A DNA stretch of 64,000 bases from Alphaproteobacteria bacterium. Lineage in GTDB: Bacteria; Pseudomonadota; Alphaproteobacteria; SHVP01. The stretch lies in NCBI GenBank assembly GCA_038116985.1, contig JAYOEZ010000006.1, positions 7,903 through 71,902 of the forward strand, written 5' to 3'. Below the pieces are notes generated by a model that was not told where the DNA came from, did no database searches, and saw only the letters and a list, made by a program, of their open reading frames with translations. A program made the position numbers and the translations under genes. Below, in pieces: positions 1 to 64,000 of the stretch. How positions within the stretch are numbered: the stretch's first letter is position 1; each line of letters starts with the position of its first letter.

Positions 1-798
1 CTTTCCGGTTTTTCGACCGGTGATTTCACCGACGCCCCGATGCTGAGGATTGTCGTCGCGACCGGCGTCGCGCTCGGCGTCGCCAGTGCCGCGGTGTGGG
101 CATCGCGCCTGCGCGCGCACAGCGGCATGGACCTCGGCCTGCAACTTCTAGAGGGGAGCGTGCGCGCCAACGTACCCTACGGCATGGGCATCAGCCTCGC
201 GCTCGGCGGACAGGCGGGCCTGGAGCTTTTCCTCGTGGCTGCCGCAACGTACCTGCCGATCGTGGTCGTCGCCGGCGGCCTGTTCCAGCAACTGGCTGGA
301 CGGCGCGACAGCGATCCCGAGGCGGAGCAGCAATTCGCCCTGGTCACCGCTCTAAGATTGTTGGCCCAGAATCCCATCGTCGCCGGGGCGGCGATCGGCA
401 TCGTGCTCAACCTCTTTGAGGTACCGGTCGCGGCCGGTCTGGCGGCGATCTTCCAGGCTGCCGGCTATGCAGCCATCCCCGTCGGCCTGCTTGGCGCCGG
501 CGCCGCCCTGAGCCTGGCGGCCGCGCAAAACGCTCTCGATGCCGCACGCAGCGACGTTTTGGTCGCACTTGCCATCAAGTCGGTCGGCCTGCCTGCTGTC
601 GCCGGACTATTGGCCTTTGTCCTTGGGCTGTCGGGGCCATCGGCAACGGCGGTTGTGCTGATTGCCGCACTACCTTGCGTCGTGCCGCGCTTCAGCGTCT
701 CGGCCGGCCCGTCGCAGGCGGTGCTCAGCGGCATCGCGACGTGGTCCACACTGCTTTCGGTGGTCGTCGTCCCAGTCGCGCTGTGGCTGCTTAGCTAG
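1..798 (+). CDS. AEC (auxin efflux carrier) family membrane transporter, 5' end cut by the window edge
   Basis: Open frame from position 1. Translation is very hydrophobic with multiple predicted TM helices and resembles the C-terminal half of AEC/MdcF-type permeases. Assignment by recollection only. Confidence 0.55.
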
Positions 799-836
799 TT
801 GTCGGCTCGGGACCGGGTACCTATAGTGAAGCTTTA

Positions 837-1805
837 ATGACATCTCTCGCCGTGACGCCTTTTCCCCACCGGCACCTGTTGGGCATTGAGGACTTGTCGA
901 CGGGGGAAATCAACGCGCTTCTCGATCTCGCCGATTCGTATGTCGACCTCAACCGACGGCCCGAGAAGAAGCTGAGCCGCCTGCGCGGCCGCACCCAAAT
1001 CAATCTGTTCTTCGAGAGCTCGACACGGACCAAGACGTCGTTCGAGCTGGCCGGCAAGCGACTCGGCGCGGACGTCATCAACATGTCGGTCGAGGGGTCG
1101 GCCATCAAGAAGGGCGAAACCCTCATTGACACGGCGATGACGCTGAACGCGATGCAGCCCGATCTCATGGTGATCCGCCATGCCGCCAGCGGCGCAGCCG
1201 AACTTCTGTCGCAGAAGGTCAACGGGTCGGTCATCAACGCAGGTGACGGCAGCCACGCGCATCCAACGCAGGCCTTGCTGGACGCGCTGACGATCCGGCG
1301 CCGCGTGGGACATCTCCAGGGTCTGGTCGTCGCGATTTGCGGCGACATACTGCACAGCCGGGTGGCGCGTTCGAACATCCAGCTCCTCGGCAAGATGGGG
1401 GCGCTCGTACGCGTCGTTGCGCCGCCGACGCTACTGCCTTCTGAGGCAGATCGGCTCGGCGTGGAGGTCCACCACGACATGGCGACCGGCCTCAAGAATG
1501 CCGACATCGTCATGATGTTGCGGTTGCAGCTCGAGCGCATGAAGGGCGCCTTCGTTCCATCCATCCGCGAATACTTCCGCTACTACGGCCTCGACCGCGA
1601 GAAGCTGGCCCACGCCAAGCCCGATGCGTTGATCATGCATCCAGGACCGATGAATCGCGGGGTCGAGATCGACACCGAGGTCGCCGACGACATCAACCGC
1701 AGCGTCATCCGCGAACAGGTCGAGATGGGCGTGGCCGTCCGCATGGCGTGTCTCGACGCCCTGGTCCATGGCGAACTTTCTGCAGAAGTCGGCGAGGCGG
1801 AATGA
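837..1805 (+). CDS. pyrB: aspartate carbamoyltransferase catalytic subunit
   Basis: Seen: 322 aa with the carbamoyl-phosphate-binding STRTR motif and the HPTQ motif ([19 protein letters not shown]). Stop TGA overlaps the next start (ATGA). Confidence 0.95.
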
Positions 1806-3103
1806 TCGAGACCACGGCACCAAAGACGGCCTACGTGAACGCGCGGCTGCTCGATCCGGCGACCGGCACCGACGGCAAGGGAGACGTCCTGACGGTTGAC
1901 GGCGAGATCGCCGACGTCGGCGCCTTGTTCGACGCCGGCACGCCGGACGATGCCATCGTCATCGACTGCGGCGGCAAGTGCCTGGCGCCGGGGTTCGTCG
2001 ACATGATGGCTTCGCTCGGTGAACCCGGCCGCGAGCACAAGGAAACGATCCACACCGCAACCCGCGCCGCAGCGGTTGGCGGTGTGACCACGATCGTCGC
2101 TTCACCGGACACGCGGCCGATCATCGACGAAATCGCCCTGGTCGAGTTTCTCGAAAGACGCGCCATCGAAACCGGAGACGTGCGCGTTCTTCCGGCAGCG
2201 GCGCTGACCAAGGGTTTGGCCGGCGAGGAGATGACGGAGTTCGGCCTGTTGTCCGAGGCCGGCGCCGTGATGTTCACAGACGGCTACCGCAGCATCACCA
2301 ACGCGCAAGTACTGCGCCGCGCTCTGTCCTATGCCACCTCTTTTGGCGCCTTGATCTCTCATCACGCGGAGCTGCCGGAGCTCGCCGGCGACGGCGTGAT
2401 GAACGATGGCGAAACGGCAACACGGCTCGGGCTTAGCGGCATTCCCGCCGCCGCCGAAGTCATCATGCTCGAGCGCGATCTGCGGATCGCGGAGCTGACA
2501 GGCGGCCGCTACCACGCGGCATCGATCTCTACCGCGGAATCGGTAGATGCAATGCGGCGCGCCAAAGACAAGGGCCTCAAGGTAAGCTGCGGCGTTGCGC
2601 CGTATCATTTCGCGCTCAATGACGCGGAAGTCGGGCCCTACCGGACATTCACCAAAGTAACGCCGCCGCTGCGGAGTGAGATGGACCGCCAGGCTATCGT
2701 TGCGGGCCTCTCCGAGGGCACCATCGACGTGATCGCCAGTCACCATCGACCGGAGGATCCGGAGGGCAAACGCCTGCCATTCGCTCAGGCCGCGTTTGGC
2801 GCAGTGGGCCTGGAAACGATGTTCGTGATCGGCCTTGAACTGGCCCACACCGGCAACATCGCGCTGCTCGACCTGATCGCGCGCCTCTCGACCCGGCCCG
2901 CAGAATTGCTCGGCCTGCCCCAGGGCCGCTTGGCCAAGGGCGCGCCGGCGGACCTTGTGGTGTTCGACCCCGACCCGCCCTGGCGCATCGATGCCGGGGC
3001 GTTCCAGAGCAAGTCGAAGAACACGCCCTTCGACGAACGCCCGGTTCAGGGACGTGTCTTGCGGACGGTCGTCGCGGGTCACACCGTGTACGACGCGGGC
3101 TAG
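1802..3103 (+). CDS. pyrC: dihydroorotase or dihydroorotase-like protein (amidohydrolase, PyrC/PyrC' class) cotranscribed with pyrB
   Basis: Seen: ATG at 1802 overlaps the pyrB stop. 433 aa with an amidohydrolase fold pattern. The pyrB-pyrC' pairing is established in Proteobacteria. Confidence 0.85.
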
Positions 3104-3106
3104 CGC

Positions 3107-3910
3107 GTGCCCGACCCGGTCGGCGACTTCTCCTTCACCTGGCCGTACTTTGCGGTATTCATCGCCGCCTATCTCCTCGGGTCTGTTCCGTTCGGTGTGA
3201 TCCTGACACGCCTGGCCGGCGCCGGGGATCTGCGCGCGATCGGCTCGGGCAACATCGGCGCCACCAACGTGCTGCGGACCGGACGTCGTTCGCTCGCGGC
3301 CGCGACGCTCATCCTCGACGGGGCAAAGGGCGCCCTCCCCGTCATCCTGGCCGAACACTTCTTGTTCCGCGACCAGGCGATCATCGCCGGTGTGGGCGCC
3401 GTGCTCGGACACATGCTGCCAATTTGGCTGATCGGCTCCAGCCGGCACGGCACCATCTTCGCGCTGCGCGAGGCGCTGCTCCTGATTGTCGGGTTCGGCG
3501 TGACCCTAATCGGCAAAGGACCGGTCAGCCTGGTCGGCGCCGCGATGTTGGTCGCGAGCACGCTGTTCGCCTGGGGTGGCAAGGGTGTGGCGACCGGGCT
3601 CGGTGTCCTGTTGGCAGCCAATCCAGCGGTCGGCGTCCTTGCGTGCCTCACCTGGCTGATTGTTGCCCTGGTGTTTCGATATTCCTCCCTGGCGGCGGTC
3701 TGCGCTTTCGTCGGCGCGCCGATCTTCGCCTGGATCCTGTCCGTGACGCAGGTCGCGGGGGCCTATTGGTCGGATCCGCAACGTATGGAGTTCGCGGTCT
3801 TCGTCGCCCTGGTCGTCCTCATCCGGCACGGCGGCAACATTGGCCGTCTGTTGCGTGGGGAGGAGCCGCGGATTGGCCAGGGAAAGGAACAAGGACGAGC
3901 CGCCACCTGA
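3107..3910 (+). CDS. plsY: glycerol-3-phosphate acyltransferase PlsY carrying an unusual internal insertion of about 48 aa
   Basis: Seen: GTG start 3 nt after the pyrC stop. PlsY motifs SGNIGATNVLRTG and GGKGVAT are present. A hydrophobic insert sits between HMLPIWL and GGKGVAT (residues about 109-156). Total length is 267 aa against a usual 195-215. Confidence 0.85.
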   Translation: MPDPVGDFSFTWPYFAVFIAAYLLGSVPFGVILTRLAGAGDLRAIGSGNIGATNVLRTGRRSLAAATLILDGAKGALPVILAEHFLFRDQAIIAGVGAVLGHMLPIWLIGSSRHGTIFALREALLLIVGFGVTLIGKGPVSLVGAAMLVASTLFAWGGKGVATGLGVLLAANPAVGVLACLTWLIVALVFRYSSLAAVCAFVGAPIFAWILSVTQVAGAYWSDPQRMEFAVFVALVVLIRHGGNIGRLLRGEEPRIGQGKEQGRAAT

Positions 3911-3938
3911 GTGCTCCAACCCGTCGATTCACGATCTG

Positions 3939-4142
3939 GTGGACCGCCTTCGCCTGATCCGCAGCGACAACGTCGGCCCCATCACCTATCACGCCTTGCT
4001 CGCGCGCTTCGGCAGTGCGAGAGATGCGATCGTCGCGCTTCCCTCCCTTTCGAAGCGCGGCGGCCGCCGAACCCCAATCAGACCCCCGGATGTCGCTGCC
4101 ATCGAAGAGGAACTGGCAGCCGCGGCTCGAATCGGCGCCTAA
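3939..4142 (+). pseudogene. dprA: DprA N-terminal (SAM/HhH-like) domain fragment, ended by an in-frame TAA at 4140-4142
   Basis: Seen: translation LRLIRSDNVGPITYHALLARFGSARDAIVAL matches the DprA N-terminal consensus. It is in the same frame as the downstream DprA core and separated from it only by TAA plus one codon. The start is uncertain (GTG 3939 proposed; the track ORF starts at TTG 3840 inside plsY). Confidence 0.6.
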
Positions 4143-4145
4143 CCC

Positions 4146-5015
4146 TTGGTGCACGGTACGCCGGACTATCCGGTATTGCTTGCCGCTATCGCGGATGCGC
4201 CGCCGATCCTCTACGCCATCGGCTCGCACGCGCTGCTCCAGCGTCCGGCCGTGGCGATCGTCGGCGCTCGGAACGCTTCGGCGGTTGGCCGCCGGTTCGC
4301 ACACGACCTCGCGGCGGAACTCGGGTCGGCGGGTTTGCCGGTCGTTTCCGGACTCGCGCGCGGGATCGATACGTCGGCGCATCTTGGCGCATTGGAAAGT
4401 GGAACCATCGCCGTCATGGCAGGGGGCGCCGACTACGTTTATCCGCCCCAGAACGAATCGCTGCACGCCGAAATCTGCGCACAGGGGTGCGTCGTATCCG
4501 AGATGCCGCCCGGCAGCGAACCTCGCGCCCAGCACTTTCCACGGCGCAATCGAATCGTCGCCGCTGTTGCATCTGCGGTAGTTGTGGTTGAAGGAGCTGC
4601 GCGTTCCGGCTCACTCATCACAGCACGTCTCGCCGGGGAATATGGACGAGATGTGCTGGCGGTCCCTGGTTCGCCGATGGACCCTCGCGCCCGCGGTCCC
4701 AACGCATTGATCCGACAGGGCGCCGCCCTTTGTGAAAGCGCTGACGACGTCCTTGCGCTGTTGGAACCGGCACGAGCGTCGCGTGTGCCATTGCCCGTCG
4801 ACGCACAGCCCGATCCACCCGGTTGCGAAGAAGAAGCGAGCGAATCGGAGCGGGACCGCATCGTTGCCGCCCTCAGCGTGGCGCCCGGTGACATCGACGA
4901 TATCGCCAGGCTCTGCGCCAGCACCCCGCAAACGGTCGTTGCCGTGGTCATGGAACTCGAACTGGCCGGACGCGCTCAAAGACTTCCGGGGCACCGGGTG
5001 CAGCTGTTGGGCTAG
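4146..5015 (+). CDS. dprA: DNA-processing protein DprA (Smf), Rossmann-fold core; the 5' part is separated by an in-frame ochre codon
   Basis: Seen: PDYPVLL, PAVAIVGARNASAVGRRFA, VVSGLARGIDTSAH, SGSLITARLA. This is a strong DprA signature. The ORF begins at TTG directly after TAA-CCC. Confidence 0.85.
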   Translation: MVHGTPDYPVLLAAIADAPPILYAIGSHALLQRPAVAIVGARNASAVGRRFAHDLAAELGSAGLPVVSGLARGIDTSAHLGALESGTIAVMAGGADYVYPPQNESLHAEICAQGCVVSEMPPGSEPRAQHFPRRNRIVAAVASAVVVVEGAARSGSLITARLAGEYGRDVLAVPGSPMDPRARGPNALIRQGAALCESADDVLALLEPARASRVPLPVDAQPDPPGCEEEASESERDRIVAALSVAPGDIDDIARLCASTPQTVVAVVMELELAGRAQRLPGHRVQLLG

Positions 5016-5117
5016 ACTACGTCGATGACGCGCGACTCTGGCAGAACCAGCCACAGCACAAGACGCGAACGCCGCGTCGAGCGTGGTGGCCGCAATACGT
5101 CGACGAGGCCGACCGAC

Positions 5118-6197
5118 ATGCAGGCGATGTTCGAGCTTGCCGTTCACGAGCATCGCGGCGGCAACCTCCTGCGCGCACGGCAGCTCTATGAGAGCATCCT
5201 GCAGACCGCCGATTCGCCCCAGGTGCGCTGCAACCTGGCAACGGTGCTGCGGACCTTGGGCGATGGCGAACAGGCGGAGCGCCTTTATCGCCAGGCAATC
5301 GCGATCAAGCCCGACCTCGCCGAAGCGCATGGCGGGCTGGGCAACGTCCTGCGTGACGCGGGGCGCTTCGACGAGGCGATCGACTGCCTTCGCATCGCGC
5401 TTGATCTGAAGCCCGACTACACCGACGCCCACGTCAATCTCGGCAACGTTCTGCAGGGACTGGGGCGTTACGAAGAGGCCGCCAAGCATTTCGAGCATGC
5501 ACTCCGGCACGGTCCCGACGACGAAGAAACGCGCTTTACGCTGGCAGCGATTCGCGGCGAGCGCCCCTCTGAAGCGCCTGCGTCCTATGCCCGCAACCTC
5601 TTCGACTCCTATGCCGATCGCTTCGACGATCACCTCGTGACCGCGCTCAAGTACCGCGTGCCCGAACTGATGCGCGCTGCGCTCGGCGCGGTACTGGGCG
5701 AGGCCGGATCCCCCAAGTCGCTGCGAGTCGCCGATTTGGGCTGCGGCACCGGACTGTGTGCGGCCGCCGTCGCCGATCTAGCGGCCACTATTCAGGGAGT
5801 CGATCTGGCGCCAAAGATGGTCGAGAAGGCGCAGGCGCGCGGAATCTACGACGAGGTCGTCTGCGGCGACATCGTGACGTTCCTGAAGCAACGACAGGGC
5901 GCCTTCGACCTCGCCCTGGCCGGCGATGTCTTTATATATGTCGGCGATATGCGGCCGACGCTGGAAGCGGCTCACGACGCGCTCGTTTCAGGCGGATTGT
6001 TCGCGCTCAGCGTCGAAGCGCTCGATGCGGACGGATTCGCGCTCCAGCCCACAGCGCGGTTTGCACATTCCATGGCGTACATCGAACGAACCGCCCAGGC
6101 AGCGGGTTTCACCGTTTGCTGGCGAGATGACATCACCGTGCGCATCGATCGCGGGGTCGCTCTCCCCGGCCATTTGTACGTGCTGCAGCGCCGGTAA
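5118..6197 (+). CDS. TPR-repeat protein fused to a class I SAM-dependent methyltransferase
   Basis: Seen: N-terminal TPR-like repeats (AEAHGGLGNVLRDAGRFDEAIDC, DAHVNLGNVLQGLGRYEEAAKH). C-terminal SAM motif I LRVADLGCGTGLCAAAV. ATG at 5118 chosen over the track start 5025. Confidence 0.75.
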   Translation: MQAMFELAVHEHRGGNLLRARQLYESILQTADSPQVRCNLATVLRTLGDGEQAERLYRQAIAIKPDLAEAHGGLGNVLRDAGRFDEAIDCLRIALDLKPDYTDAHVNLGNVLQGLGRYEEAAKHFEHALRHGPDDEETRFTLAAIRGERPSEAPASYARNLFDSYADRFDDHLVTALKYRVPELMRAALGAVLGEAGSPKSLRVADLGCGTGLCAAAVADLAATIQGVDLAPKMVEKAQARGIYDEVVCGDIVTFLKQRQGAFDLALAGDVFIYVGDMRPTLEAAHDALVSGGLFALSVEALDADGFALQPTARFAHSMAYIERTAQAAGFTVCWRDDITVRIDRGVALPGHLYVLQRR

Positions 6198-6268
6198 CGC
6201 GCTGCAAACCTTAAGGATTTCTTCAGCGCTTCATTCCTAGAAGCGTCCGTGGACCCGAACACTCGCGA

Positions 6269-6298
6269 TTGACAGTTTGTCCGCTTTCAGACTATGTG
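6269..6298 (+). promoter_or_regulatory. candidate sigma70-type promoter upstream of topA (TTGACA, 17-18 nt, CTATGT/TATGTG)
   Basis: Seen: TTGACA at 6269-6274 and a TATGTG-like -10 at 6292-6298, about 70 nt upstream of the topA ATG. Pattern match only. Confidence 0.3.
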
Positions 6299-6368
6299 CT
6301 GGCCCCTCCACATCCGGCGCGTGCCGTGATGAGTAACAACGACGAGTAGAATCGAACGCGATCATCAT

Positions 6369-9044: not shown

Positions 9045-9047
9045 CGC

Positions 9048-12057: not shown

Positions 12058-12968
12058 CGATTCACCCGCAGGCCCAGGCCGTCGTCGATGGCAACACTTG
12101 GGGCCATCTCGATCCCGACACGGTCGGCATAGCCGCGCTGCGCGAAGCGATGAACACGCGGCTGATCGAACTCGCCGGGCGAGGCCCCGACCTCGCCGCA
12201 GTGAACGATGTTTCCATCAAGACGGACGACGTACGCATTCCCGTGCGCATCTATAAGCCGCGCAACTCGGACGCAGCGCCGCCGGTCTACGTCTACTTCC
12301 ATTCCGGCGGCTATTGCGTCTACGACATCGACACCGCCGACGCGCAGTGCCGTGTTATGGCGCGCGACGCCGACTGCGTCGTGGTGTCCGTCGGCTACCG
12401 GCTCGCGCCGGAAGCGCCCTTCCCGGCCGCGGCGGAGGATGCCTGGGCGGCCCTGCGCTGGATCGTCGAAGAGGCCGGTTCCATTGGCATCGACGCCGAC
12501 CGCGTTGCCGTCGGCGGCGAAAGCTGCGGCGGCACGTTGGCGACGGTGTGCGCGTTGCGCGCGCGCGACGCCGGCCATCCCACGCTGCGGCAGGTGGTTC
12601 TATCATGCGCGCTGCTTGAGATGGGCGCACCTCGGCCAGGCGAGACACGCACCCTGGCGACCTGGATGCGCGACCAGTATCTGACCACGCCGGGCGCAGA
12701 GGACGACTTCCGGGCCTCGCCGTTGCGCCATCCAGACCTCGGCCACCTGCCGCCGCACCTGTTGCTCACCGGGGAACACGACGGGTTGCGCGAGCAGGCC
12801 TATCAATATGCCGAGCGCCTGAAACAGGCGGGAACCATGGCGGAATTGCACGACTTCCCGGGCATGATCCACAACTTCACAGGGATGCGCGCCGCCCTCG
12901 ACGATGCCCAGCACGGCCTCGACCTGATCGCCCGGACGCTAAGATCGGCCTTCTCCGTCACGCCCTAA
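12054..12968 (+). CDS. alpha/beta hydrolase fold-3 esterase/lipase (HSL family)
   Basis: Seen: HSGGY oxyanion motif, the nucleophile elbow GESCGG, and conserved D/H near the C-terminus. The GTG start overlaps the NUDIX stop. Confidence 0.8.
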   Translation: MTIHPQAQAVVDGNTWGHLDPDTVGIAALREAMNTRLIELAGRGPDLAAVNDVSIKTDDVRIPVRIYKPRNSDAAPPVYVYFHSGGYCVYDIDTADAQCRVMARDADCVVVSVGYRLAPEAPFPAAAEDAWAALRWIVEEAGSIGIDADRVAVGGESCGGTLATVCALRARDAGHPTLRQVVLSCALLEMGAPRPGETRTLATWMRDQYLTTPGAEDDFRASPLRHPDLGHLPPHLLLTGEHDGLREQAYQYAERLKQAGTMAELHDFPGMIHNFTGMRAALDDAQHGLDLIARTLRSAFSVTP

Positions 12969-18542: not shown

Positions 18543-18573
18543 AAACCCCTGGGCCTCGCCCCAGGGGTTTTTT
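18543..18573. terminator. rho-independent terminator between the convergent GGDEF and adenylate cyclase genes
   Basis: Seen: AAA, stem CCCCTGGG, loop CCTCGC, stem CCCAGGGG, then TTTTTT. The T-tract serves the + strand GGDEF gene, and the hairpin abuts the cyclase stop. Confidence 0.65.
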
Positions 18574-20368: not shown

Positions 20369-20375
20369 TCCGTCA

Positions 20376-28636: not shown

Positions 28637-28698
28637 CCTCCCTCAGTGGCGTGCGCATCGCGCGCGTCGATCCTGAACGACCGGAAATGGAGACGCCC

Positions 28699-48767: not shown

Positions 48768-49499
48768 CTATCGGAAACCGCGGTGTCCCGGAACCCCATC
48801 CACGGCGGCAGGCTGCATCGTGCGTGCCTCGGGCTCGCCAGCGCCGACGATGCGTCCGTCGGGCAACGTCAGGCCAAGGGTAATATCGGCAATGGTCAAG
48901 AATGCTGAAATCGGCCCGTCGCCGTCGGCGACCGGAAGCCACAGTCTGTCGTACATGGTCGTCGACCCGGCGCCATCGACGCCCGTGATACGGCAGACGC
49001 CAGGCCGCCCGAACTCAACCAGCGCCTCGTAGCTGCGGCAAACGCCCTCCGCGACAGGCGCCGAGGGAAAACCCCCGACGGTGGTCGGCCGAAACGCTCC
49101 GAACTCGCCGAAGCCCTCGCCGAGATGCAAGAACGGCCATTTGGACGTCGGCTGATCACGCAGGATGCGCACGAGTGTCGTGTAGGGCGTATTGAGCGCC
49201 GGCCGTTCCAGCAGCGATATTCCACTTTAGCCGGCATGGTCGACGAACACGCCCTGCGGACACGCCACTTCCATGAAATCGGCGAACGCGTTGCGCAGCA
49301 CCGGCGACCACATGTCGCTCAGCGGATAGCCGGAAACCTCGCAGCGACCGTCATCGACAGAGATGAAGCCGCTGTAGGTCTCGCCCAGAATATCTGCAAC
49401 GGTTGCGAGCATGCCGGTCCCCCCACCGAACGAAGCCCTCTCTCGACGCCTCCCCAGACGTCTGGACCCTATCGTTTCAGACTTGGTGCCGTTCCTCAA
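48768..49499 (-). pseudogene. hypothetical protein reading frame interrupted by an in-frame TAA (minus strand, plus coordinates 49227-49229)
   Basis: Seen: track ORFs 49227-49499 and 48768-49172 are in the same frame on the same strand, separated by a single TAA. No family recognised. Low confidence that it is a single gene. Confidence 0.35.
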
Positions 49500-49549: not shown

Positions 49550-50719
49550 ATGAGGGGACAAGCTCTGCACGGCATTCTGCCGGACGAGACGCACGACGAA
49601 ATGTCGCGTCAGGACTTTGTGACCAGCTTCAAGGTGCACGTCCTCACGCAGCTTTCTGGCGGCAACAAGACCGCCTTCTTAACCAGCGCAGTGCCCCGTT
49701 TCCGGCGCAAGACGGGACACGAACCAGAGAATGCCCGCGAGGTCGCGCAGGCGATGCGGGACGAACCGTTTTGGCAGACCTGGAGCTCGCTCAACCGCTC
49801 GGGCCAGGAGTTGATGTGGGAAGCGCTCGGCGAGCGCACCGGGCGCCAACTCGACGACCTCAACAGCAAGGCGCGCGAGGTGGCCCAGCGCACGAAGAAG
49901 AAGGGCACGTTGCGTCTGAACCCCAAGCTTGAGACGCCGCGCTACAACAGCGAGATTCACATCCACTGCCAGCCGGGCGGCTATCACTCGGAGCTCACCA
50001 GCGACGATGTGTTTGCCGGCGCGCTGTATGACGTGGGTGCCTATCAGTACGGCATGGGAGGCCAGGGCCCGTGGACGGACGACGTCGGCCTGACGGTCGG
50101 CCACGTCCTCAACGAACGGTTTCCCGATTTCAAACCGAAGCGCATCCTCGACTTGGGTTGCGGCGTCGGGCATCAGACGCTCGGCCTGGCGGAGGCCTTT
50201 CCGGACGCCGAAATCCATGCCTGCGATCTTGGGGCGCCGATGGTTCGGTATGCGCACGCGCGTGCGGAATCAGTCGGCAAGGCCGTTCACTTCTCACAGC
50301 AGAACGCCGAGCACACCGACTTTCCCGACGGGAGCTTCGATCTCGTGACCTCGATGATTTTGTTTCACGAGACCTCGACGAAGGCGATCCCCAACATCAT
50401 CAACGAAAGCTTCCGCCTACTGCGGCCGGGCGGGTTGATGGTTCACGGCGACGTGCCGGAGTTCAACAAGTTCTGGCCCGAACCCTACGACCGCTTCCAG
50501 CGCGACTGGACCACGCATTTCAACGCCGAACCCTTCCGCAGCAAGATGCGGGAAATGGACATGGGCGACATTGCGAAGAAGGCGGGGTTCAAGGCTTCGA
50601 CGATCAGCGAGGAACTCGTGCCGAGCGTCTTCGGCCAGTCCGGCTATTCCAACACGTCGCTCTACGGAAAGACCCATGCCTACGGGATGAAGTGGTGGGT
50701 CCTCCTGGCGCAGAAATAG
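49550..50719 (+). CDS. two-domain SAM-dependent methyltransferase, paralog 3
   Basis: Seen: ILDLGCGVGHQT, LRLNPKLETPRYNSEIHIHCQPGGY, APMVRYAHARAESVG, VHFSQQNAEHTDF, FHETS. ATG 49550 verified. Confidence 0.8.
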   Translation: MRGQALHGILPDETHDEMSRQDFVTSFKVHVLTQLSGGNKTAFLTSAVPRFRRKTGHEPENAREVAQAMRDEPFWQTWSSLNRSGQELMWEALGERTGRQLDDLNSKAREVAQRTKKKGTLRLNPKLETPRYNSEIHIHCQPGGYHSELTSDDVFAGALYDVGAYQYGMGGQGPWTDDVGLTVGHVLNERFPDFKPKRILDLGCGVGHQTLGLAEAFPDAEIHACDLGAPMVRYAHARAESVGKAVHFSQQNAEHTDFPDGSFDLVTSMILFHETSTKAIPNIINESFRLLRPGGLMVHGDVPEFNKFWPEPYDRFQRDWTTHFNAEPFRSKMREMDMGDIAKKAGFKASTISEELVPSVFGQSGYSNTSLYGKTHAYGMKWWVLLAQK

Positions 50720-50739: not shown

Positions 50740-51594
50740 ATGAAGATCAATCCGGTTTCGCCCGTCATGGGCGCAGAGATTCTTGATCTCGACCTCGCCG
50801 AGCCCATCGACGACACAGCGTTCGAGGAGATTCACAAGGCCTTCCTTGAGCACATTGTGCTGGTGTTTCGCGACCAGACCCTGACGCCGGCCCAACACGT
50901 GGCCTTCAGCCGACGTTTCGGCGACCTCATGGTTCACGTAAAGGCCGAGTACCTGCTGCCGGACCAGCCCGAGGTGCTCATCCTATCGAACAAGAAGCAC
51001 CCCGACGGTCGCCCCATGGGCTTCGAGGATGCCGGGCGCTATTGGCATTCGGACATGTCCTACGTCGAGGAACCGCCGTTGGGTTCACTGCTGTACGCGG
51101 TTGAGATTCCACCCGCCGAGGGCGACACCCTGTTTGCCAACATGTACCTCGCGTATGACGCATTGCCCGACGAAACCAGGCAGCGGCTGGAAGGCCTCAC
51201 GGCGGCGCATTCGTACCTCGCCAGCTTCGAAGGCAAGACCAAGATCGGCTCGGGCCGCGACACGTTGACGGACGAACAGAAGGCGCAACTGCGCGAAGTG
51301 ATTCATCCCGTCGTACGGACCCACCCCGAGACGGGCCGCAAGGCGCTCTATGTGAATCCAGGCTTCACGGTGCGAATCGAGGGGCTGCCGGATGACGACG
51401 CGGCGTCACTGTTGGACGATCTGATCGAACATGCCTCGCGGCCACAATTCCAGTACCGCCACGCGTGGCGGCCCCACGACCTTGTGTTCTGGGACAACCG
51501 CTGCGCCATGCACCACGCGACGCTGTATGACCGGCAGTACGCACGGCATATGCACAGGACAACGGTGAAAGGCGACCGTCCTTTCGCCGCCTAG
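50740..51594 (+). CDS. TauD/TfdA-family Fe(II)/2-oxoglutarate-dependent dioxygenase
   Basis: Seen: HSD metal triad region WHSDMSYVEEPP with a later H, and an R near the C-terminus. 284 aa from ATG 50740, 21 nt after paralog 3. Confidence 0.85.
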   Translation: MKINPVSPVMGAEILDLDLAEPIDDTAFEEIHKAFLEHIVLVFRDQTLTPAQHVAFSRRFGDLMVHVKAEYLLPDQPEVLILSNKKHPDGRPMGFEDAGRYWHSDMSYVEEPPLGSLLYAVEIPPAEGDTLFANMYLAYDALPDETRQRLEGLTAAHSYLASFEGKTKIGSGRDTLTDEQKAQLREVIHPVVRTHPETGRKALYVNPGFTVRIEGLPDDDAASLLDDLIEHASRPQFQYRHAWRPHDLVFWDNRCAMHHATLYDRQYARHMHRTTVKGDRPFAA

Positions 51595-55265: not shown

Positions 55266-56153
55266 TTGTGGATGATGGGGACACTCGTTTCCTTCTCCAT
55301 GGTCGGCATCGCGACGCGTCATCTGACGGATGCGGGCCTGCCGGTCCTGCAGGTCTTGCTGCTGCGCGCGTCGATCGGCCTGATCGTCTTGTCGCCGATC
55401 GTGTTGCTGCGCGGCTGGTCGACGGTGGCAACAGCGCAGTGGCGGCTACACGGCGTGCGCAACGTGCTGCACTACGGCGCCAGCTACGCTTGGTACTACG
55501 GGATCGCCGTCTTGCCGCTGGCCAACGTGTTCGCCATCGAGTTCACCGCGCCCATATGGGTCGCGCTCCTTGCCGTGCTGATCCTCGGGGAGAAGCTGGA
55601 TGTGGGCCGTGGCGTTTCAATCGGCCTCGGCGTGCTGGGCATGATGATCATCGTGCGGCCCGGCTTCGCCGCATTTTCGCTGGATTCGCTAGTCGTGCTG
55701 GGAAGCGCCCTGGGATTTGCCTGCGCGCACATCGCGACGAAGGGCCTGACGCGGACCAATACGGCGCTCAAGGTGCTGTTCTGGATGGCCGCGATGCAGT
55801 TTCCCATTGCGCTCGGCCCGGCATTGGCGGTGTGGACACCGATCGAGGGGTTCTCGTGGCTATGGGCGGCGGTGATGGGCGTCAGTGCGCTGAGTGCCCA
55901 TTTCTGCCTGACCAACGCGCTCAGTCTGGCCGACGCCAGCGTCGTCGTGCCCATGGACTTCCTGCGCATCCCGTTGATCGCGCTGGTCAGCCTGGTGGTG
56001 TTCGCCGAACCGATCGACATCTGGGTGCTGGTCGGCGCGGCGGTGATCTTTTCGGGCGTCTACTACAGCATCCGCCGCGAACACCGGCGCAGCGCCGCCG
56101 TGTCGGTGGCGACACCGCCTCTCGAGATCGTCGGGAGCGACAAGGAACCCTAG
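55266..56153 (+). CDS. EamA/DMT-family transporter (10 TM)
   Basis: Seen: two EamA half-domains. Paralogous to the gene at 61784. Confidence 0.8.
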   Translation: MWMMGTLVSFSMVGIATRHLTDAGLPVLQVLLLRASIGLIVLSPIVLLRGWSTVATAQWRLHGVRNVLHYGASYAWYYGIAVLPLANVFAIEFTAPIWVALLAVLILGEKLDVGRGVSIGLGVLGMMIIVRPGFAAFSLDSLVVLGSALGFACAHIATKGLTRTNTALKVLFWMAAMQFPIALGPALAVWTPIEGFSWLWAAVMGVSALSAHFCLTNALSLADASVVVPMDFLRIPLIALVSLVVFAEPIDIWVLVGAAVIFSGVYYSIRREHRRSAAVSVATPPLEIVGSDKEP

Positions 56154-58115
56154 CTAGAGCGTGCGCGCGAGGCGGGCCGCGTCGTGGGTCGCCGCCCAGA
56201 TGCCGCGCGGCGACAGACAGTCGCCGATGCCGTGCCCGCCGTCGGGGAAGTCCCGCGATACGGCGCCGGTGGCAAGTACGATCGAATCGAACGGACCCAG
56301 CAAGCGCCCGTCGCGCGTCTTGACCGAGCCGCCACTGATCTCCTCAACGACCGCGTTCGGTACTGTTTCGATGCCGGCGGCACGGATGCGCGCTGCAATG
56401 TCGGGCAACTCGCGGGTGAAGGTCAGTTCCGCCTCCCCCCAGACAGCCTCTGTCGTGGCGACCGTGACCTTGCTGACGCCATCTCGACCGACCAGCGTTT
56501 CGGCAAGAGAAATCGCGCTCCACCCGCCTTCCTCGTCGACAATCAGGACGTGGCCGGCAACCTGCTTCTCGCCGGTCAGCACCTCGCGGCCATGGGGCAG
56601 ACCCTCGCCGCCGGGGATGCCGTCCTGCAGCCACGGGCGCAGACGCCAGATGGCGGTGGGGCCGGGGTCTGATCCGAGCGCCCACACGACCTCGTCGGCG
56701 TCGAGTTCATCGGCCGAGGCGACCTTGGTCCCCAGCTTGATCTCGACCTGACGCTGGCGCAGTTCGGTTTCCCACCAGGTCAGGGCATCCTTCATCTCGT
56801 CACGGTGGGGCGCATCGGCGGCAAGCCGCATCAGCCCGCCGAGACGATCTTGCGCCTCATAAAGGGTGACCCGGTGGCCGCGGGCAGCCGCGACGCGAGC
56901 CGCCTCCATGCCCGCCGGGCCGCCGCCGACGACAGCAATCTTCTTCGGCTTTGCAGCCGGCTCCGGGTTGAGCGCGATCTCACCTTCACGGCCCGCGGTC
57001 GGGTTAAGAACGCACGTGCCTGGAATGTGACGAAACACGAAGCTGACGCAGCCCTGGTTGCAGGACATGCAAGGACGAATGCGATCCTCATGGCCATCGA
57101 TGATCTTGTTCGCCCATTCCGGGTCGGCGATCCACGTGCGCGCCATGGCGACAATGTCGGCGCTACCCTCGGCAATAATGCGCTCGGCATCAGCAGGCGA
57201 GCGGATACGGCCCGCGACGATGACCGGCACCTTGACCGCGGCCTTGAACGCCTTCGATTCCTCGGAGAGCTGGTTCCGCTTCATGTGCATCGGCGGCATG
57301 GTCTCGTGCGGCGCCCAGCGCGAGCCCGAGATGACGCTGACCCAATCGACGAGACCGGCCTCGGCGACGCGCTTCATGGTCTCGACCGATTCTTCCAGCT
57401 TGTAGTCGATCGGCGCGAAGGGAATGTGGTGGGAGGTCGAGGTGCGCACGCCAACGGCCATGTCTGGGCCGGCCGCCTCACGCACCGCCTCGCACACTTC
57501 GAGTACGATGCGGATGCGGTTCTCGTAGGAGCCGCCATAGGCGTCCTTGCGGTGATTCATGGCGGGCGACAGGAACGAGCCCAGGAGATAGCTGGTCGCC
57601 GTCTGCACCTCTACTGCATCGAGCCCGGCCTCGCGGCAGCGGCGGGTCGCCTCTGCGTAGCCCCTGATCAGTTCGCGGATTTCCGCGGCGGTGATGGCGC
57701 GGGGGGTCTCACGCCCGATGTTGGGAATCGGCGAGGACGAAACCGCCGAACGACCTTCGATAAAGGAGACGTTGTGCCCGCCGTGCCACAGGGTGATGGA
57801 CACCTTGGAGTCCGCGGCGTGCACCGCGTCGGCCAGTTTGCGCAGGCTGGGCACGACCTCGTCGGTGTAGAGCCGCACGTTGAGGAAGCGGTTGCCAGAA
57901 GAGGCATGGACCGGCGCCGACTCTGTCCCGAGCATCGACGCCCCGCCCTGGGCGCGGGTCACGACATAGTTGTGCAGTCTGTCCGTAACGCCGCCCGACG
58001 CGTCGTTCAGCGACATGCCGTGCGCGCTCATGGTCGCGCGGTGCTTTAGCGTCATCGGGCCGACCTGGATCGGCGACAACAGATTGGGGTAGCGGGTCTT
58101 GGGATCGTTGCTCAT
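56154..58115 (-). CDS. second OYE-family Fe-S flavoprotein oxidoreductase (paralog of 51591-53528)
   Basis: Seen: CMSCNQGC...C cluster motif and VAVVGGGPAGMEAARVAAARGHRV. Its stop abuts the EamA stop (TAG-CTA). Confidence 0.85.
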   Translation of the reverse strand: MSNDPKTRYPNLLSPIQVGPMTLKHRATMSAHGMSLNDASGGVTDRLHNYVVTRAQGGASMLGTESAPVHASSGNRFLNVRLYTDEVVPSLRKLADAVHAADSKVSITLWHGGHNVSFIEGRSAVSSSPIPNIGRETPRAITAAEIRELIRGYAEATRRCREAGLDAVEVQTATSYLLGSFLSPAMNHRKDAYGGSYENRIRIVLEVCEAVREAAGPDMAVGVRTSTSHHIPFAPIDYKLEESVETMKRVAEAGLVDWVSVISGSRWAPHETMPPMHMKRNQLSEESKAFKAAVKVPVIVAGRIRSPADAERIIAEGSADIVAMARTWIADPEWANKIIDGHEDRIRPCMSCNQGCVSFVFRHIPGTCVLNPTAGREGEIALNPEPAAKPKKIAVVGGGPAGMEAARVAAARGHRVTLYEAQDRLGGLMRLAADAPHRDEMKDALTWWETELRQRQVEIKLGTKVASADELDADEVVWALGSDPGPTAIWRLRPWLQDGIPGGEGLPHGREVLTGEKQVAGHVLIVDEEGGWSAISLAETLVGRDGVSKVTVATTEAVWGEAELTFTRELPDIAARIRAAGIETVPNAVVEEISGGSVKTRDGRLLGPFDSIVLATGAVSRDFPDGGHGIGDCLSPRGIWAATHDAARLARTL

Positions 58116-58201: not shown

Positions 58202-60508
58202 TCAGGTGTGGTCGGGCAACGCTGCCGGATCGGGACGACCAGTCAGGAGTTTCTGGCCCTCGTCGAGCTTGAAGAAGCCGACAAGACGAACGAGCTCGGT
58301 TGCCTGCGACCCCAGCGCCTGGACCGCGGCCGTCGTCTGCTCGACCAGCGCAGCGTTCTGCTGGGTCATGCTGTCCATCTGCGAGATGGCCGAGTTGACT
58401 TCGCCGAGGCCGCCGGACTGCTCCTCGCTGGCGCGCGCCACCTCGTCGATGATCGAGGCAACCTTCTGCACCGCACTGATGATCTGGCCGAGCGCTTCAC
58501 CCGCGCCGTTGACCGGATTGACGCCGTTCCCGACATGCGCGGAACTGGTCTCGATGAGCTGCTTGATCTCGGTTGCAGCCTCGCCGGAGCGCTGTGCGAG
58601 CGAGCGCACCTCCGAAGCGACCACGGCAAAACCCTTGCCGGCATCGCCGGCGCGGGCAGCTTCGACCGAAGCGTTCAACGCCAGAAGATTGGTCTGGAAG
58701 GCGATGTCCTCGATCACGTTGACGATCTAGGAGATCGACTTGGAGGACTCCTCGATCTCCGCCATCGCGGCGACCGCGTCGGTGACGATCTTGCCACCGC
58801 TGTCCGCTTCCTTGCGCGTCTCCGCAACGAGCTTGTTGGCCTCCTGCGCGTTGTCGGCATTGCGGCGCACGGTGCCCGTCATCTCTTCCATCGCGGCCGC
58901 GGTTTCTTCCAGGTTGGCCGCCTGCTGCTCGGTGCGCTGCGCCAAGTCGTCGGCGCCCTGCCCCAACTCGTGGGATGCGTTGTTGACGTTGTCCGTCGTG
59001 CTGCGAATGTCCTTAACGAGATCTGCTAGCGTGCCGGCCATGCCGTTGAGGTCGTTCTTGAGCTGCAGGAACGCGCCCTGATAGTTGCCGGTGACGCGGC
59101 TCCCGAGATCGCCCTTGGACAATGCTTCCGCGACGCCCATGACCTCGCTGAGGCCCTGGTCGACGGTCTCGACGAGCTGGTTGAGCGACTCGGACAGGCT
59201 CAGCATGAAGCCCTCTTTGCCAACGGTCTCGACGCGCGCCGAGAAATCGCCGACGGCTGCAGCGCCGACCACAGCGTCGATTTCCTCGCCCGCCTTCTGC
59301 TCCATGTCGCGCCGGTTCTCGATCTGAACGGCGTTCTCCTTGAAGACCTCAAAGGCTTCGGCCATGTCGCCGATCTCGTCGCTGCGGCCCTTGCCAACGA
59401 CAGCGACATCAAGCCGGCCCTCGGCCAGATCGCGCATCGCCGTGGCGAACTGGCGCAGGGCGCCGGAAACGCTGCGACCAATGGCCGTGGTGGCCACAAT
59501 AGAGACAACCAGCATGATCGCGCCGACGATAGCAGCTGCCCAGATCATGAACTCCAGCAGCGCCTGTGTCCCGTCGGTGGCCTCATGGCTTCGTTCACGA
59601 AAACTCTCAAGTTTCTCGTGGAGAATTTCCTGCGCCTCGCTGGCAGCACCGTCAATGAGATCATCGAGGCGCGCAAAAGCCCGCTCACCCTCGCCAAACT
59701 GGATCACAGCGGACGCAAGATCGCTACGGATCACGCCACCCCAGGTATCAAACAGCGCGATCAGTTCGTCGGTTACCGCGCTGACGTTTTGCGAGCGCTC
59801 TATCGCGGCAATTTCCGTCAGAACTTCGGTGGCAGCAGCAATCTGCTCGTCGACGATCGCGATACGCTCGGGTTCAACGACACCGTCACTCCTGTCGATG
59901 ATGATATCCATCGCAGCGAGATTCGCTTCGGCTGTTGCCTGGGCCAGGGTCTGGATCATGGAGCGGAGGTCGGCAATGCGTGTCGCCGCGCCGCGGCGAT
60001 CGAGCAATGCTTCCAGTTCACCGATCTTCTCGCCGATGGCCCCACCGGTTCCGTCGATGTCATCATCCAGTTCCGCGAAGCGCGTTTCGATTGCGCCGAC
60101 CCCCACGACGGCGTCGTTGAGATCGACCAGGATCACCTTGACGAGTTCAGCGGCGGCCTCGCGCACTCGCGCCAATGCATCACGGTCGTCCGGCTCCTGG
60201 ATGCGCCCCAGCAACTCCTCTACCTGGCGCTCCATCAAGGCACCAGCCTCGCGGACGGCGGTCAGACGCTCCTCTGAAATCTCGCCATCGGCACGATCGA
60301 CGATCGCATCCATCGCAATGAGATTGACTTCTGCAATCTCAAGCTCAAGCGCCTCGACGAGCGCCATGTCGTCGGCCCGCCGTTCGCTGATGGTAAGCTG
60401 TCCATCGACCTGAAGGCCGACGACGATGAACATCACCGTCAGAATGACAATTGTGACCGCACTCAGCGCGGTCAGCGCATTGAGTTTGCGCGCGATAGTC
60501 TACTTCAT
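58202..60508 (-). pseudogene. methyl-accepting chemotaxis protein interrupted by two in-frame amber codons (codon 3 at 60500-60502 and at 58718-58720)
   Basis: Seen: the minus strand reads ATG AAG TAG ACT..., giving MK*TIARKLNALTALSAVTIVILTV (a typical MCP signal-anchor). HAMP region follows, then ...[57 protein letters not shown], the MCP signalling hairpin, all in one frame. Confidence 0.8.
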
Positions 60509-60529
60509 GAGATGCCCCCTTCGTCGCGC

Positions 60530-61603
60530 CTAAAAAGCGCCGAAGCTGAATTCGTGGGTCAGCAGCAGGCCGACGGTGTGGCTGTCGACGTCTGCGTCCT
60601 CGACATACCGATAGCCGAGGCTGAGATTGAAGCCGCGATAGATATCGCGTCCGACGCTGAACTGGAACAGTTCATCGTCGGTATTTGCCTGGCCGCCCGC
60701 TTCCGGGTCGATCGAACGGGTCGAATATGACCCTTCAAAGGCCCATGGGCCGTTGATGAGACCGAGCCCGAGGGTCGCGTAGGTACGGTCTTCCTCGGCA
60801 GCCTTGGCGTTCTGGAAGAATGCGATTTCGACCACGTGGGTGAGCGTCCAGTCTTGTCATACCGGAACGTCGCCGAAGATCGCGACCGCAACGGCGTTCT
60901 CGTCCTCGGGATTGCCCTGGCCGGCGGCCAGGTGATCGTAGCTGATCTGGTAGTTGACGCCGGCGAGCGGGCCCGGCGCTTCGCCGGTAAGGATGGTGCT
61001 GAAGGACGACAGGTCGCCGGTGTTGCTGGCGCCACCGTCGCCCTCGCGGGTCTGCGCGCGGCGCTGGAACCACGAGCGGCTGAGGCCCGAGTGATCCTGG
61101 TAGAAGGTGTTGACGGAGAACGTCTGCGCGGTGCCGCCGGGGCCGGTGAAGTCGAACGAGGCACCGAGGCCGATGCGCTCGGTCAGTTCGTAGTCCTCGG
61201 CGAAATCGGAGCCATAGATACCCGGCGTCAGGTCCCAGGCGACGCCGAACGGCGGCGCGTACTTGCCCGCGGTGAGGGTCGCCGGGCCGCGCGCGTAGCT
61301 CAGGTACAGATCCTTCACGTAGAGGCCCTGGTCGCTGAAGAAGCGGTCGTTGGTGGGGTCGTTGATGGGTTCGTAGGTCAGACCCGCTTCAAGCGACAGC
61401 CCGTGGCCGAGACGCAACGATATTGCCGGTTCGATGGTCGTGTAGGTATCGGCGAGTTCCGCATCTCGATCTGCGGAGTCGTAGACGCCATCGAACTGAA
61501 TCTCGATCGGTACCGTGACTTCAAGACGATGGTCTTCCTGGGCCGAGGCGATGGTGGGCACGAGAATCGTGATGGCCGCCAGACCAGCAAACAAACTACG
61601 CAT
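60530..61603 (-). pseudogene. outer-membrane beta-barrel protein interrupted by an in-frame TGA (60857-60859)
   Basis: Seen: signal peptide MRSLFAGLAAITILVPTIASAQE. The downstream same-frame ORF ends ...THEFSFGAF (OMP C-terminal aromatic signature). The two are separated only by ...GDVPV*QDWTLTHVVEIAFF. Confidence 0.6.
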
Positions 61604-61783
61604 GAATCAGTGTCCTTATTGTCGTTCAACCCTGAGGTGCCGGCTGCGCCGACCCTCTCCCCAATGGTGTTTTGCCCCGGATTCGCCTAGGAAAGAAAGG
61701 CGTAGCGTCCCCTACCGAGTAGGGGGAATCCCCTACCGGGCACATTCCAAGCGGAAATCGGCGATGAGACGGACCCTTCCCCA

Positions 61784-62665
61784 ATGAGCCCGACCGTCCG
61801 CGGGGCGCTGTGGATGTTCGGCATGGTGGTGTCGCTGTCGCTGCTCGCCATCGCGGCGCGCGAGCTCGCCGACCGCCACAATCCCATGGAATTGCAGGTG
61901 GTGCGGCACGGGCTGAGCCTGCTCATCCTGTTCCCCTTCGTCGCCCGGGCCGGATTCCGCCCTGTCCGGACCAACAACTTCAGGCTTCAGATATTCCGCA
62001 ATCTGGCACATTTCGCGGCGACCATCGGCTGGTACGCCGCCGTCACGGTGCTGCCGCTGGCCGAAGTCTTCGCCATCGAGTTCACGACGCCGGTGTGGGT
62101 CGCCCTGCTGGCGGTACTGTTCCTGGGCGAGAAGATGAATCGCGGGCGGGTGGCGGCGCTGGTGCTGGGGCTGGTCGGCATCATGGTGATCCTGCGGCCG
62201 GGCTTCGCGGAAGTCGGCTGGGGCACCTGGATGATGGTGGCGGCGGCCTTCGGCTTCGCCATCGCCAACGCCTGCACCAAGGGCCTGACGCGGACCGACA
62301 GCGTGCTGACGGTGCTGTTCTGGATGTCGCTGCTGCAGGGCGCGATGGCGCTGGTGGGGGCGTCCTTCGCGTGGACGGCACCGACTGTGGACGAGATCCC
62401 GTGGCTGGTGATCGTCGGCCTGATGGGGCTGGCGGCGCATTTCTCGCTCGCCAAGGCGCTGACCCATGCCGACGTGTCGCTGGTCAACCCGGTGGACTTC
62501 CTGCGCCTGCCGCTGATCGCGGTGGTCGGCTTCTTCGCCTACGGCGAGGCGGTGGAAATCTGGGTCTATCTGGGGGCGGCGCTGATCTTCGTGGGCAACT
62601 ACTACGCCATCCGGCGCGAGTCGCGTCCTTCGACACGGATGCCTTCGTCGTCCGGCTCAGGATAA
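61784..62665 (+). CDS. EamA/DMT-family transporter, paralog 2
   Basis: Seen: VLPLAEVFAIEFTTPVWVALLAVLFLGEKM here against VLPLANVFAIEFTAPIWVALLAVLILGEKL in the gene at 55266. Confidence 0.8.
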   Translation: MSPTVRGALWMFGMVVSLSLLAIAARELADRHNPMELQVVRHGLSLLILFPFVARAGFRPVRTNNFRLQIFRNLAHFAATIGWYAAVTVLPLAEVFAIEFTTPVWVALLAVLFLGEKMNRGRVAALVLGLVGIMVILRPGFAEVGWGTWMMVAAAFGFAIANACTKGLTRTDSVLTVLFWMSLLQGAMALVGASFAWTAPTVDEIPWLVIVGLMGLAAHFSLAKALTHADVSLVNPVDFLRLPLIAVVGFFAYGEAVEIWVYLGAALIFVGNYYAIRRESRPSTRMPSSSGSG

Positions 62666-62890
62666 GGCCCTTCGCCCTTCGGCACGGACCGCTGACGCGG
62701 TCCGGCTCAGGATGAGGCCCTGCGACTCGGGCGGCGATCGCCGCCCGGCTCAGGACGAGGCGCCAAACGAAGCCAATTCGCTCGGCGCCGCCAGCTACGA
62801 AACGAAGCCATTTGGGCGCGCGGGCGGACTGCGAAACGAAGCCAATTCCCGTTTCGGCACAGAGTACGAAACGAACCCAGTCCGACCTAA
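62650..62890. repeat. intergenic tandem direct repeats of two families: about 3 copies of CCGGCTCAGGA(T/C)(A/G)AGGC and about 4 copies of (C)GAAACGAAGCCA with a period of about 34 bp
   Basis: Seen directly between the convergent EamA and cupin genes. The first copy overlaps the EamA stop codon. Confidence 0.5.
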
Positions 62891-62939
62891 CTCATTGACA
62901 TAAAACGGCGATTCAGGATAACCCACGCGCGGAGAAGGG

Positions 62940-63410
62940 TTATTCGAAGGACGAACCGTCCTTACGGCTGAACACGCCCTTGCCGGTGTCGTCGTAGGCG
63001 AACTTCATGTCGATGTCCGGGTATTCGCCGGAATCGCCGGGGACGCGGTCGCCGACCTCGAGATAGGCAGCAGGCCGGTCGGTCCGGTTGACGAGGTGGT
63101 GGCCGTCCTCGCTGCCGGCGGGGAAGCCGGCCGACATGCCGGGCGTGAGAACCTGCTCGCCGGCGTCGGTGATCAGGGTGAGCTCGCCCTCCAGGACCCA
63201 GACGAATTCGTCCTGAACGCGATGCCAGTGGCGCTGGGCCGAGGCCTGGCCCGGCGGCAGGATGGTGTAGTTGACCCCGTAGTTCTTGAGCCCGGCGGCG
63301 TCGCCCAGCGGATGCTTCTCGCGCTTGTTGCAGATCTCGTCATGGGGCGAGGGATAGCCCGAGCCGATACGGGGTTTGACGTCCTTGGGGTTCTTGATGA
63401 CGTGGGGCAT
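62940..63410 (-). CDS. cupin-domain protein
   Basis: Seen: two-His cupin motifs (HWHRVQDEF...E, G...H) in 156 aa. Confidence 0.7.
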   Translation of the reverse strand: MPHVIKNPKDVKPRIGSGYPSPHDEICNKREKHPLGDAAGLKNYGVNYTILPPGQASAQRHWHRVQDEFVWVLEGELTLITDAGEQVLTPGMSAGFPAGSEDGHHLVNRTDRPAAYLEVGDRVPGDSGEYPDIDMKFAYDDTGKGVFSRKDGSSFE

Positions 63411-63419
63411 GGGAATCTC

Positions 63420-64000
63420 CTACCTGGTTTCTTCGAACATCTCGCGGCCGATCAGCATGCGGCGTATCTCCGACGTGCCGGCGCCGATCTCGTAGAGCTT
63501 GGTGTCGCGTAAGAATCGGCCTGTGGGGAACTCGTTGATGTAGCCGTTGCCGCCTAAGCACTGGATCGCGTCGAGCGCGACCTGGGTCGCCTTTTCGGCC
63601 GAGTAGAGGATCGCGCCGGCGGCGTCCTTGCGGGTGACGCGGCCCGCGTCGCAGGCGCGCGCGACGGCGTAGACGTAGGCCTTGCAGGCGTTGGTCGTGG
63701 TGTACATGTCGGCGAGCTTGCCCTGCATGAGCTGGAACTCGCCGATGGGTTTGCCGAACTGCTCGCGTTCGTGGACGTAGGGCACCACGGTATCGAGGCA
63801 GGCCTGCATGATGCCCAAGGGACCGCCCGACAGCACCGCGCGTTCGTAGTCGAGGCCGCTCATCAGGACGCGGACGCCCTTGCCGACCTCGCCCAGCACG
63901 TTCTCTTCGGGCACCTCGCAGTCCTGGAATACGAGCTCGCCGGTGTCCGAACCGCGCATACCGAGCTTGTCGAGCTTCTGCGCGGTGGAGAAGCCCGTGA
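63420..64000 (-). CDS. ivd: isovaleryl-CoA dehydrogenase (acyl-CoA dehydrogenase), C-terminal part; the gene continues past the window end
   Basis: Seen: ACAD C-terminal domain ([21 protein letters not shown], catalytic E in [18 protein letters not shown]). The IVD call is supported by the MCC genes in the window. Confidence 0.8.

Follow-up and report, generated by a model that had tools for sequence, protein, structure and literature searches.

Do premature stop codons in a metagenome-assembled genome (MAG) mark errors of assembly, recoding, or genes that a natural population has really lost? The question is raised by a 64-kb stretch of alphaproteobacterial DNA (assembly GCA_038116985.1, contig JAYOEZ010000006.1, positions 7,903 to 71,902; hereafter, the window). 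From the sequence alone, an original prediction had reported five disrupted genes in it: dprA (DNA-processing protein A), a methyl-accepting chemotaxis protein (MCP) gene, a porin-like outer-membrane protein (OMP) gene, a conserved hypothetical gene beside a thiolase gene, and a class III adenylate/guanylate cyclase gene. Comparison with full-length orthologues confirmed all five (Table 1). We consider it likely that the five genes are pseudogenes with one or two inactivating hits, genuine loss-of-function alleles of recent origin in a natural, near-clonal estuarine population.

Table 1. Disrupted genes of the window, their lesions, and the independently assembled contigs that carry the same lesions.
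Gene	Coordinates	Strand	Lesion	Basis of call	Logan contigs (sequencing runs)
dprA pseudogene	3873-5015	+	in-frame TAA 4140-4142	translation, Pfam, homologue alignment	L001 (SRR26337561), L002 (SRR26337559)
Class III adenylate/guanylate cyclase pseudogene	18573-19800	minus	frameshift ~19623		L014 (SRR26337559), identical frameshift
Conserved hypothetical gene beside thiolase	48768-49412	minus	TAA 49227-49229		L015 (SRR26337561), same split into open reading frames of 61 and 134 amino acids
MCP pseudogene	58202-60508	minus	TAG 60500-60502 and TAG 58727-58729		L012, L013 (SRR26337560, SRR26337561), first TAG
Porin-like OMP pseudogene	60530-61603	minus	TGA 60857-60859		L012, L013 (SRR26337560, SRR26337561)

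For all five families, the orthologues are full length and uninterrupted, and comparison with relatives showed that none of the lesions is shared by any orthologue examined. In dprA, the TAA separates an N-terminal HHH/SAM-like domain from the Rossmann-fold domain, with the Pfam match to DprA_N (profile positions 4-64 of 64) lying 5' of the stop and those to DNA_processg_A and DprA_WH lying 3' of it. Eleven homologues carry a sense residue, most often Q, at the stop column (Q in 5, R in 2, V in 2, T in 1), and CAA to TAA appears the likeliest change. The MCP gene carries two stops, and tblastn of its orthologues from two close relatives (contigs L003 and L004) against the window recovered both. 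The first is codon 3, which encodes W in 6/6 full-length homologues (MKWTI...); since a good Shine-Dalgarno sequence (AGGGGG) lies 6 nt 5' of the ATG, this stop is inside the true coding sequence. The second lies inside the MCPsignal domain at a position that is E in 6/7 homologues, with HAMP domains upstream and profile positions 42-172 of MCPsignal downstream. The original prediction had the first MCP stop right and placed the second 9 nt away, at 58718-58720, where the codon is AAC. Judging from the aligned residues, TGG to TAG and GAG to TAG are the likely changes. We also observed a Pro in the signaling domain of the window MCP (58202-58717; alignment A2, column 667) where 6/6 other homologues have Leu (GVNPVN versus GV.LVN); this private change is helix-breaking and may be an early indication that constraint has relaxed.

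The OMP gene ends 21 nt from the MCP start, and the two are probably co-transcribed. Its C-terminal piece has a weak Porin_4 match, and an exhaustive HMMER search returned 719 homologues, mostly of 355-380 amino acids, that cover both halves. The closest of these (P0228; 355 amino acids) is 69% identical. The TGA stands 327 nt before the gene end at a column occupied by S/Q/G/R (alignment A3), and it probably arose by TCA to TGA. The hypothetical gene has a 235-amino-acid orthologue (L003:11112-11819; 66% identity) that spans the TAA, and the alignment contains one stop. For the cyclase, a 1-nt frameshift had been predicted within 19600-19650; we found it on the minus strand at ATGGGC/C/CGCTGC, within a GGGCCC run (motif 19614-19632) that has either gained one C or lost 2 nt. 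The frameshift detaches the N-terminal ~60 amino acids, with the upstream frame stopping at TGA 19597-19599 and the Guanylate_cyc domain contained in the open reading frame at 18573-19655. Although a word-indexed homologue search with the N-terminal 168 amino acids of the cyclase alone gave no match, a scan of genome contigs found three orthologues (L006, 77% identity; L007; L008) that remain in a single frame across the junction (...RVLHPVYAG(M/L/T)G(F/L/Y)(L/R)W...).

Taken at face value, each lesion would end its protein ahead of an essential domain or within one, and loss of function is the probable outcome: DprA_N would be split from the Rossmann domain, MCPsignal would be cut at profile position 42 of 172, and the last 108 amino acids of the OMP barrel would be lost. 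When a shared mutational signature was sought, the probable changes were mixed (C>T, G>A, G>T, and probably C>G), and we draw nothing from them.

We then asked whether the lesions are present in DNA assembled separately from the deposited MAG. The source study surveyed the Brisbane River estuary (SRR26337510-78), a hypereutrophic habitat, with 54 water samples of the 0.22-8 μm fraction sequenced on the Illumina NovaSeq; assembly used metaSPAdes, most MAGs derive from Illumina 150-bp reads, and the MAGs were deposited in PRJNA1024631 (PMC11758582). Logan contigs are assembled run by run with an assembler different from that of the deposited MAG, and we recovered them by exact-product look-up. 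Five of the six lesions were found in Logan contigs from three runs (SRR26337559, SRR26337560, and SRR26337561). Six such contigs, ~12.6 kb in total, match window positions 3631-6299, 18549-20701, ~48.5-49.8 kb, and 59366-61840 with 0 mismatches, that is, at 100% identity (L015 by exact product). Given zero mismatches over this length in three metagenomes, the population is essentially clonal across the samples, with low diversity. No intact dprA or MCP allele of >75% identity was present in a collection of 5.8 billion protein clusters, and the lesion alleles are apparently at high frequency in the natural population. These five lesions recur in independently assembled contigs from metagenomes of size-fractionated river and estuary water (PMC11758582), and the suggestions of assembly error and of a lab-passaged strain are thereby refuted.

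Disruption appears confined to these genes. Intactness elsewhere was judged by Pfam/NCBIfam coverage, which was full length for the other window genes, and by tblastn of relatives' called proteins; the latter covered ~27 window genes and gave single uninterrupted alignments for all save dprA, MCP, and the hypothetical gene. Two further candidates were rejected. The suspected sixth split gene (13221-13676/13657-14340) resolves, by synteny with contig L016, into rpmG, a minus-strand response regulator, and an intact 223-amino-acid hypothetical gene. The suspected break in an acyl-CoA dehydrogenase gene at the window end is a frame that merely runs off the window. The OMP gene and the hypothetical gene are missing from otherwise syntenic sites of GCA_040216735.1 (L004) and are on that ground accessory in the clade; L003 has the hypothetical gene.

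To gauge the age of the lesions, we tallied the substitutions private to one sequence at columns where all other homologues agree. The window dprA has 4 such changes (0-12 in intact homologues), its MCP has 6 (6 in the sister sequence), and its OMP has 1 (1-6 in intact homologues). Both flanks of the lesions keep every invariant family residue, the broken genes show no excess of private substitutions, and decay is not yet detectable. We also performed a Tajima-type relative-rate test with L003 as the sister contig and L004 as the outgroup; the distance to the nearest relative leaves it with low power. The MCP gave 57 versus 49 unique changes, and seven intact neighboring genes together gave 169 versus 175 lineage-specific amino-acid changes. 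Because the broken genes lack excess substitutions and their intact neighbors show no acceleration, the lesions are young, as the original prediction had proposed from the flanks, and they are mostly one to a gene, in sensing, uptake, and surface genes that are dispensable. The second MCP hit could reflect brief neutral evolution after the first, a course of events that we estimate, given the observed missense excess, as somewhat unlikely.

What, then, would have allowed such alleles to arise and persist? The best remaining explanation is relaxed selection, one of the candidates originally put forward, or drift, acting on genes that are dispensable. The lesions would have originated as ordinary point mutations plus one small indel (the gain of one C or the loss of 2 nt in the cyclase), and they would have struck functions that the cells may be able to do without in this habitat, namely DNA uptake, a chemoreceptor, a porin-like OMP, a cyclase, and an accessory hypothetical gene. 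Persistence could then follow from relaxed selection, drift, or hitchhiking in a low-diversity population. The OMP nonsense codon may in addition lower expression of the MCP gene 21 nt downstream by polarity, which would plausibly explain in part why the latter took two further hits.

The strongest competitor is adaptive loss, in which the knockouts were individually favored and swept rather than drifting to fixation. We regard it as unlikely overall, though with an appreciable chance of being correct. Under this alternative, the porin-like OMP might have been lost as a phage receptor, and costly chemotaxis, competence, and signaling might have been shed in a nutrient-rich estuary. The nature of the targets fits (5/5 are environment-facing or regulatory and none is housekeeping), as do the hypereutrophic habitat (PMC11758582) and alleles that look fixed in three samples of a population essentially clonal over 12.6 kb. 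However, relatives show no parallel loss of dprA, MCP, or cyclase, and a second TAG in the MCP gene is expected from neutral decay, not from selection. No test made here separates selection from hitchhiking.

Less probable by a clear step is a recent genome-wide burst of unselected mutations, caused by a mutator or a severe bottleneck. The nonsense codons would then be only the conspicuous part of a larger set, with ~140 missense and 55 synonymous changes in the same window, a scenario that we judge very unlikely. Six lesions in 64 kb is a high number, and the ratio of nonsense to missense mutational targets in the disrupted genes is 0.035, so that five nonsense hits would imply many silent companions. 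However, such a burst predicts ~+22 changes in the seven intact neighbors, and the excess observed in this low-powered comparison is −6 ± 18 (z ~−1.5). Nor was any essential or housekeeping gene struck. As far as the substitution counts can tell at this power, neither a mutator nor general relaxation is indicated, and the mutator strain raised by the original prediction finds no support.

It is highly improbable that the stops are decoded or bypassed by a suppressor tRNA, by selenocysteine (Sec) or pyrrolysine (Pyl) insertion, by leaky termination, or by programmed frameshifting, leaving the genes functional. Perfectly conserved flanks would suit such a mechanism, and the stop usage of the clade (described below) hints at an atypical balance of release factors. 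As in known recoding systems (UGA to Trp or Gly codes, Sec, Pyl, and prfB-type frameshifting), the in-frame stops and the frameshift lie inside well-conserved coding sequence. Unlike in those systems, the premature stops here use all three codons, the lesions have no counterpart in orthologues and come with no recoding signal, and each codon also ends normal genes. Among 50 curated gene ends in the window, 32 are TAG, 14 are TGA, and 4 are TAA; many coincide with the end positions of orthologues, and in-frame stops occur in only 4 of ~56 genes. Because all three codons terminate ordinary genes here and the lesions are not conserved, stop-codon reassignment, already thought unlikely in the original prediction, is excluded, and the regulated readthrough that it ranked as least likely is unsupported. 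TAG is moreover the preferred terminator, which would make TAG readthrough costly.

Specific recoding mechanisms fare no better. Residues aligned to the stops are W, E, Q/R, and S/G and never Cys. With S/Q/G/R opposite the TGA, W and E opposite the TAGs, and no stop in any orthologue, the pattern does not fit Sec or Pyl insertion. To our knowledge, none of the affected families are Sec or Pyl proteins. Programmed frameshifting in the cyclase is contradicted by the single frame of L006, L007, and L008 and by the site sequence, ATGGGCCCGC, which lacks a heptameric slippery motif; we know of no slippery motif of the form GGGCCC. Phase variation is equally poorly matched, with the frameshift in only a G3C3 run and the stops being substitutions. 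Finally, no suppressor tRNA, credible tRNA, or Rfam element was found within the window. One ARAGORN call, a 98-nt tRNA-Arg(GCG) at 12521-12618, was judged spurious: it lies within an esterase open reading frame and has no Rfam tRNA match.

Sequencing or assembly error in the deposited contig is scarcely credible: despite its origin as a MAG, the short homopolymer context of the frameshift, and one MCP stop seen in a single assembly, five of six lesions, the frameshift included, reappeared at 100% identity when three separate runs were put through a different assembler, and stop-creating substitutions confined to nonessential genes are no error signature.

Several observations nevertheless weigh against reading the disruptions as young null alleles under relaxed selection. 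The second MCP TAG was seen in the source assembly only (P0122), without a sighting in an independent read set; exact-product look-ups of P0122 itself and of the 171-amino-acid C-terminal fragment gave no match. All three samples belong to a single study, and the populations that they represent may not be fully independent. Residual function is possible in two of the genes, through reinitiation past the dprA TAA (at TTG 4146 or GTG 4149) and through a cyclase start at GTG 19655. A stretch of 2.2 kb holds three of the five nonsense codons; our rough scan-statistic calculation puts this clustering at p ~0.03-0.04, and it calls for the polarity or dead-operon argument. The density is also high: 5 of ~56 broken genes is 2-9 times the usual prokaryotic pseudogene background of 1-5% (Liu et al. 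2004, PMC522871). The Poisson probability of at least five is ~0.0004, 0.03, or 0.15 for backgrounds of 1%, 3%, or 5%, respectively; the window was picked by scan and the density covers this window alone, so the excess is elevated but not decisive. It is suggestive, and local coincidence and a genome-wide state are not separable from the window alone.

How do the disrupted genes compare with known pseudogenes? Among young pseudogenes of Salmonella, 346/378 carry a single hit, and 131 of those hits are premature stops (Kuo and Ochman 2010, PMC2916853). The window genes resemble these and other young prokaryotic pseudogenes (PMC2916853, PMC522871) in being intact and matching their orthologues apart from single inactivating point mutations or small indels, in belonging to nonessential, environment-related, weakly connected functions, and in showing no secondary decay. 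They differ in coming from uncultured, free-living estuarine plankton rather than cultured enterics, in exceeding the 1-5% density, and in including one gene that already has two nonsense codons. In the early genome degradation reported for recently host-restricted bacteria such as Sodalis and Symbiopectobacterium (PMC3091646, PMC13345370), many recently inactivated genes are likewise still recognizable at full length, and the losses again concern motility, chemotaxis, surface, and regulatory functions. In contrast to those genomes, the window shows no insertion sequence expansion, no AT drift (64% GC), and tight packing with a largest gap of 274 nt; its housekeeping and metabolic genes are intact, and the cells come from the 0.22-8 μm water fraction, with no known host association.

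It is quite unlikely that the window is representative, such that a free-living, planktonic, high-GC lineage is undergoing an active wave of pseudogenization, with fresh single hits in ~9% of its genes (hundreds) and with atypical, TAG-majority termination in its clade. If it were, an undescribed lifestyle transition or bottleneck would have been caught at its very start, or termination rich in release factor 1 (RF1) and poor in release factor 2 (RF2) would alter the cost of nonsense mutations; were the density to hold genome-wide, gene loss would be just beginning in this estuarine lineage. Under the explanation that we favor, relaxed selection or drift, there is nothing out of the ordinary in the disrupted genes. 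They are useful as a clean and verifiable example of premature stops in a MAG that prove to be real population alleles common to several environmental samples, and annotators should neither dismiss such stops as errors nor call recoding.

The stop usage of the window is unusual in its own right. TAG is the majority stop, at ~64% of the curated gene ends and 37/58 by automatic call. Among 43 Prodigal-called genes of the close relatives (L003, L004, and L016), TAG ends 25 (58%), TAA ends 10, and TGA ends 8; the more distant relatives L009 and L010 are TGA-dominant. Bacterial TAG usage is ~20% irrespective of GC content, and the codon has been termed "universally suboptimal" (PMC3549826, PMC9348620). 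TAG dominance may indicate an unusual RF1/RF2 balance in the clade, and a TAG-majority clade may bear on the unresolved "TAG paradox" of bacterial stop usage, which may make it more interesting than the pseudogenes. Enrichment of the tetranucleotide CTAG was considered as a cause and rejected, with CTAG being under-represented (52 observed versus 97 expected). Several convergent gene pairs overlap in a palindromic CTAG, so that the two TAG stops share bases, as at window positions 31048-31051 and 51591-51594. Another convergent pair, at 56151-56156, is of the abutting form, TAGCTA. The arrangement is kept in relatives (L003 4421-4424 and 8983-8986; L004 14345-14348).

With respect to its wider content, the window (~56 genes) is typical for a free-living alphaproteobacterium. 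Its housekeeping genes include pyrB, pyrC, plsY, dprA, topA, rnr, clpA, and clpS, and its metabolic genes encode methylcrotonyl-CoA carboxylase, thiolase, and Old Yellow Enzyme (OYE)-type reductases. The nearest relatives of any window gene are uncultured "Alphaproteobacteria bacterium" MAGs with just 60-89% amino-acid identity, and the nearest named DprA homologues are from Rhodospirillales; the host is an uncultured Rhodospirillales-like alphaproteobacterium of the Brisbane River estuary. S-Adenosylmethionine (SAM) methyltransferases are also encoded, among them three paralogous SAM-dependent enzymes (28651-29865, 29873-31051, and 49550-50719), each with an uncharacterized N-terminal region of ~200 amino acids. 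Two of these genes are in tandem, and the third lies beside genes for a TauD-family dioxygenase and the OYE-type reductases, in a cluster that is conserved.

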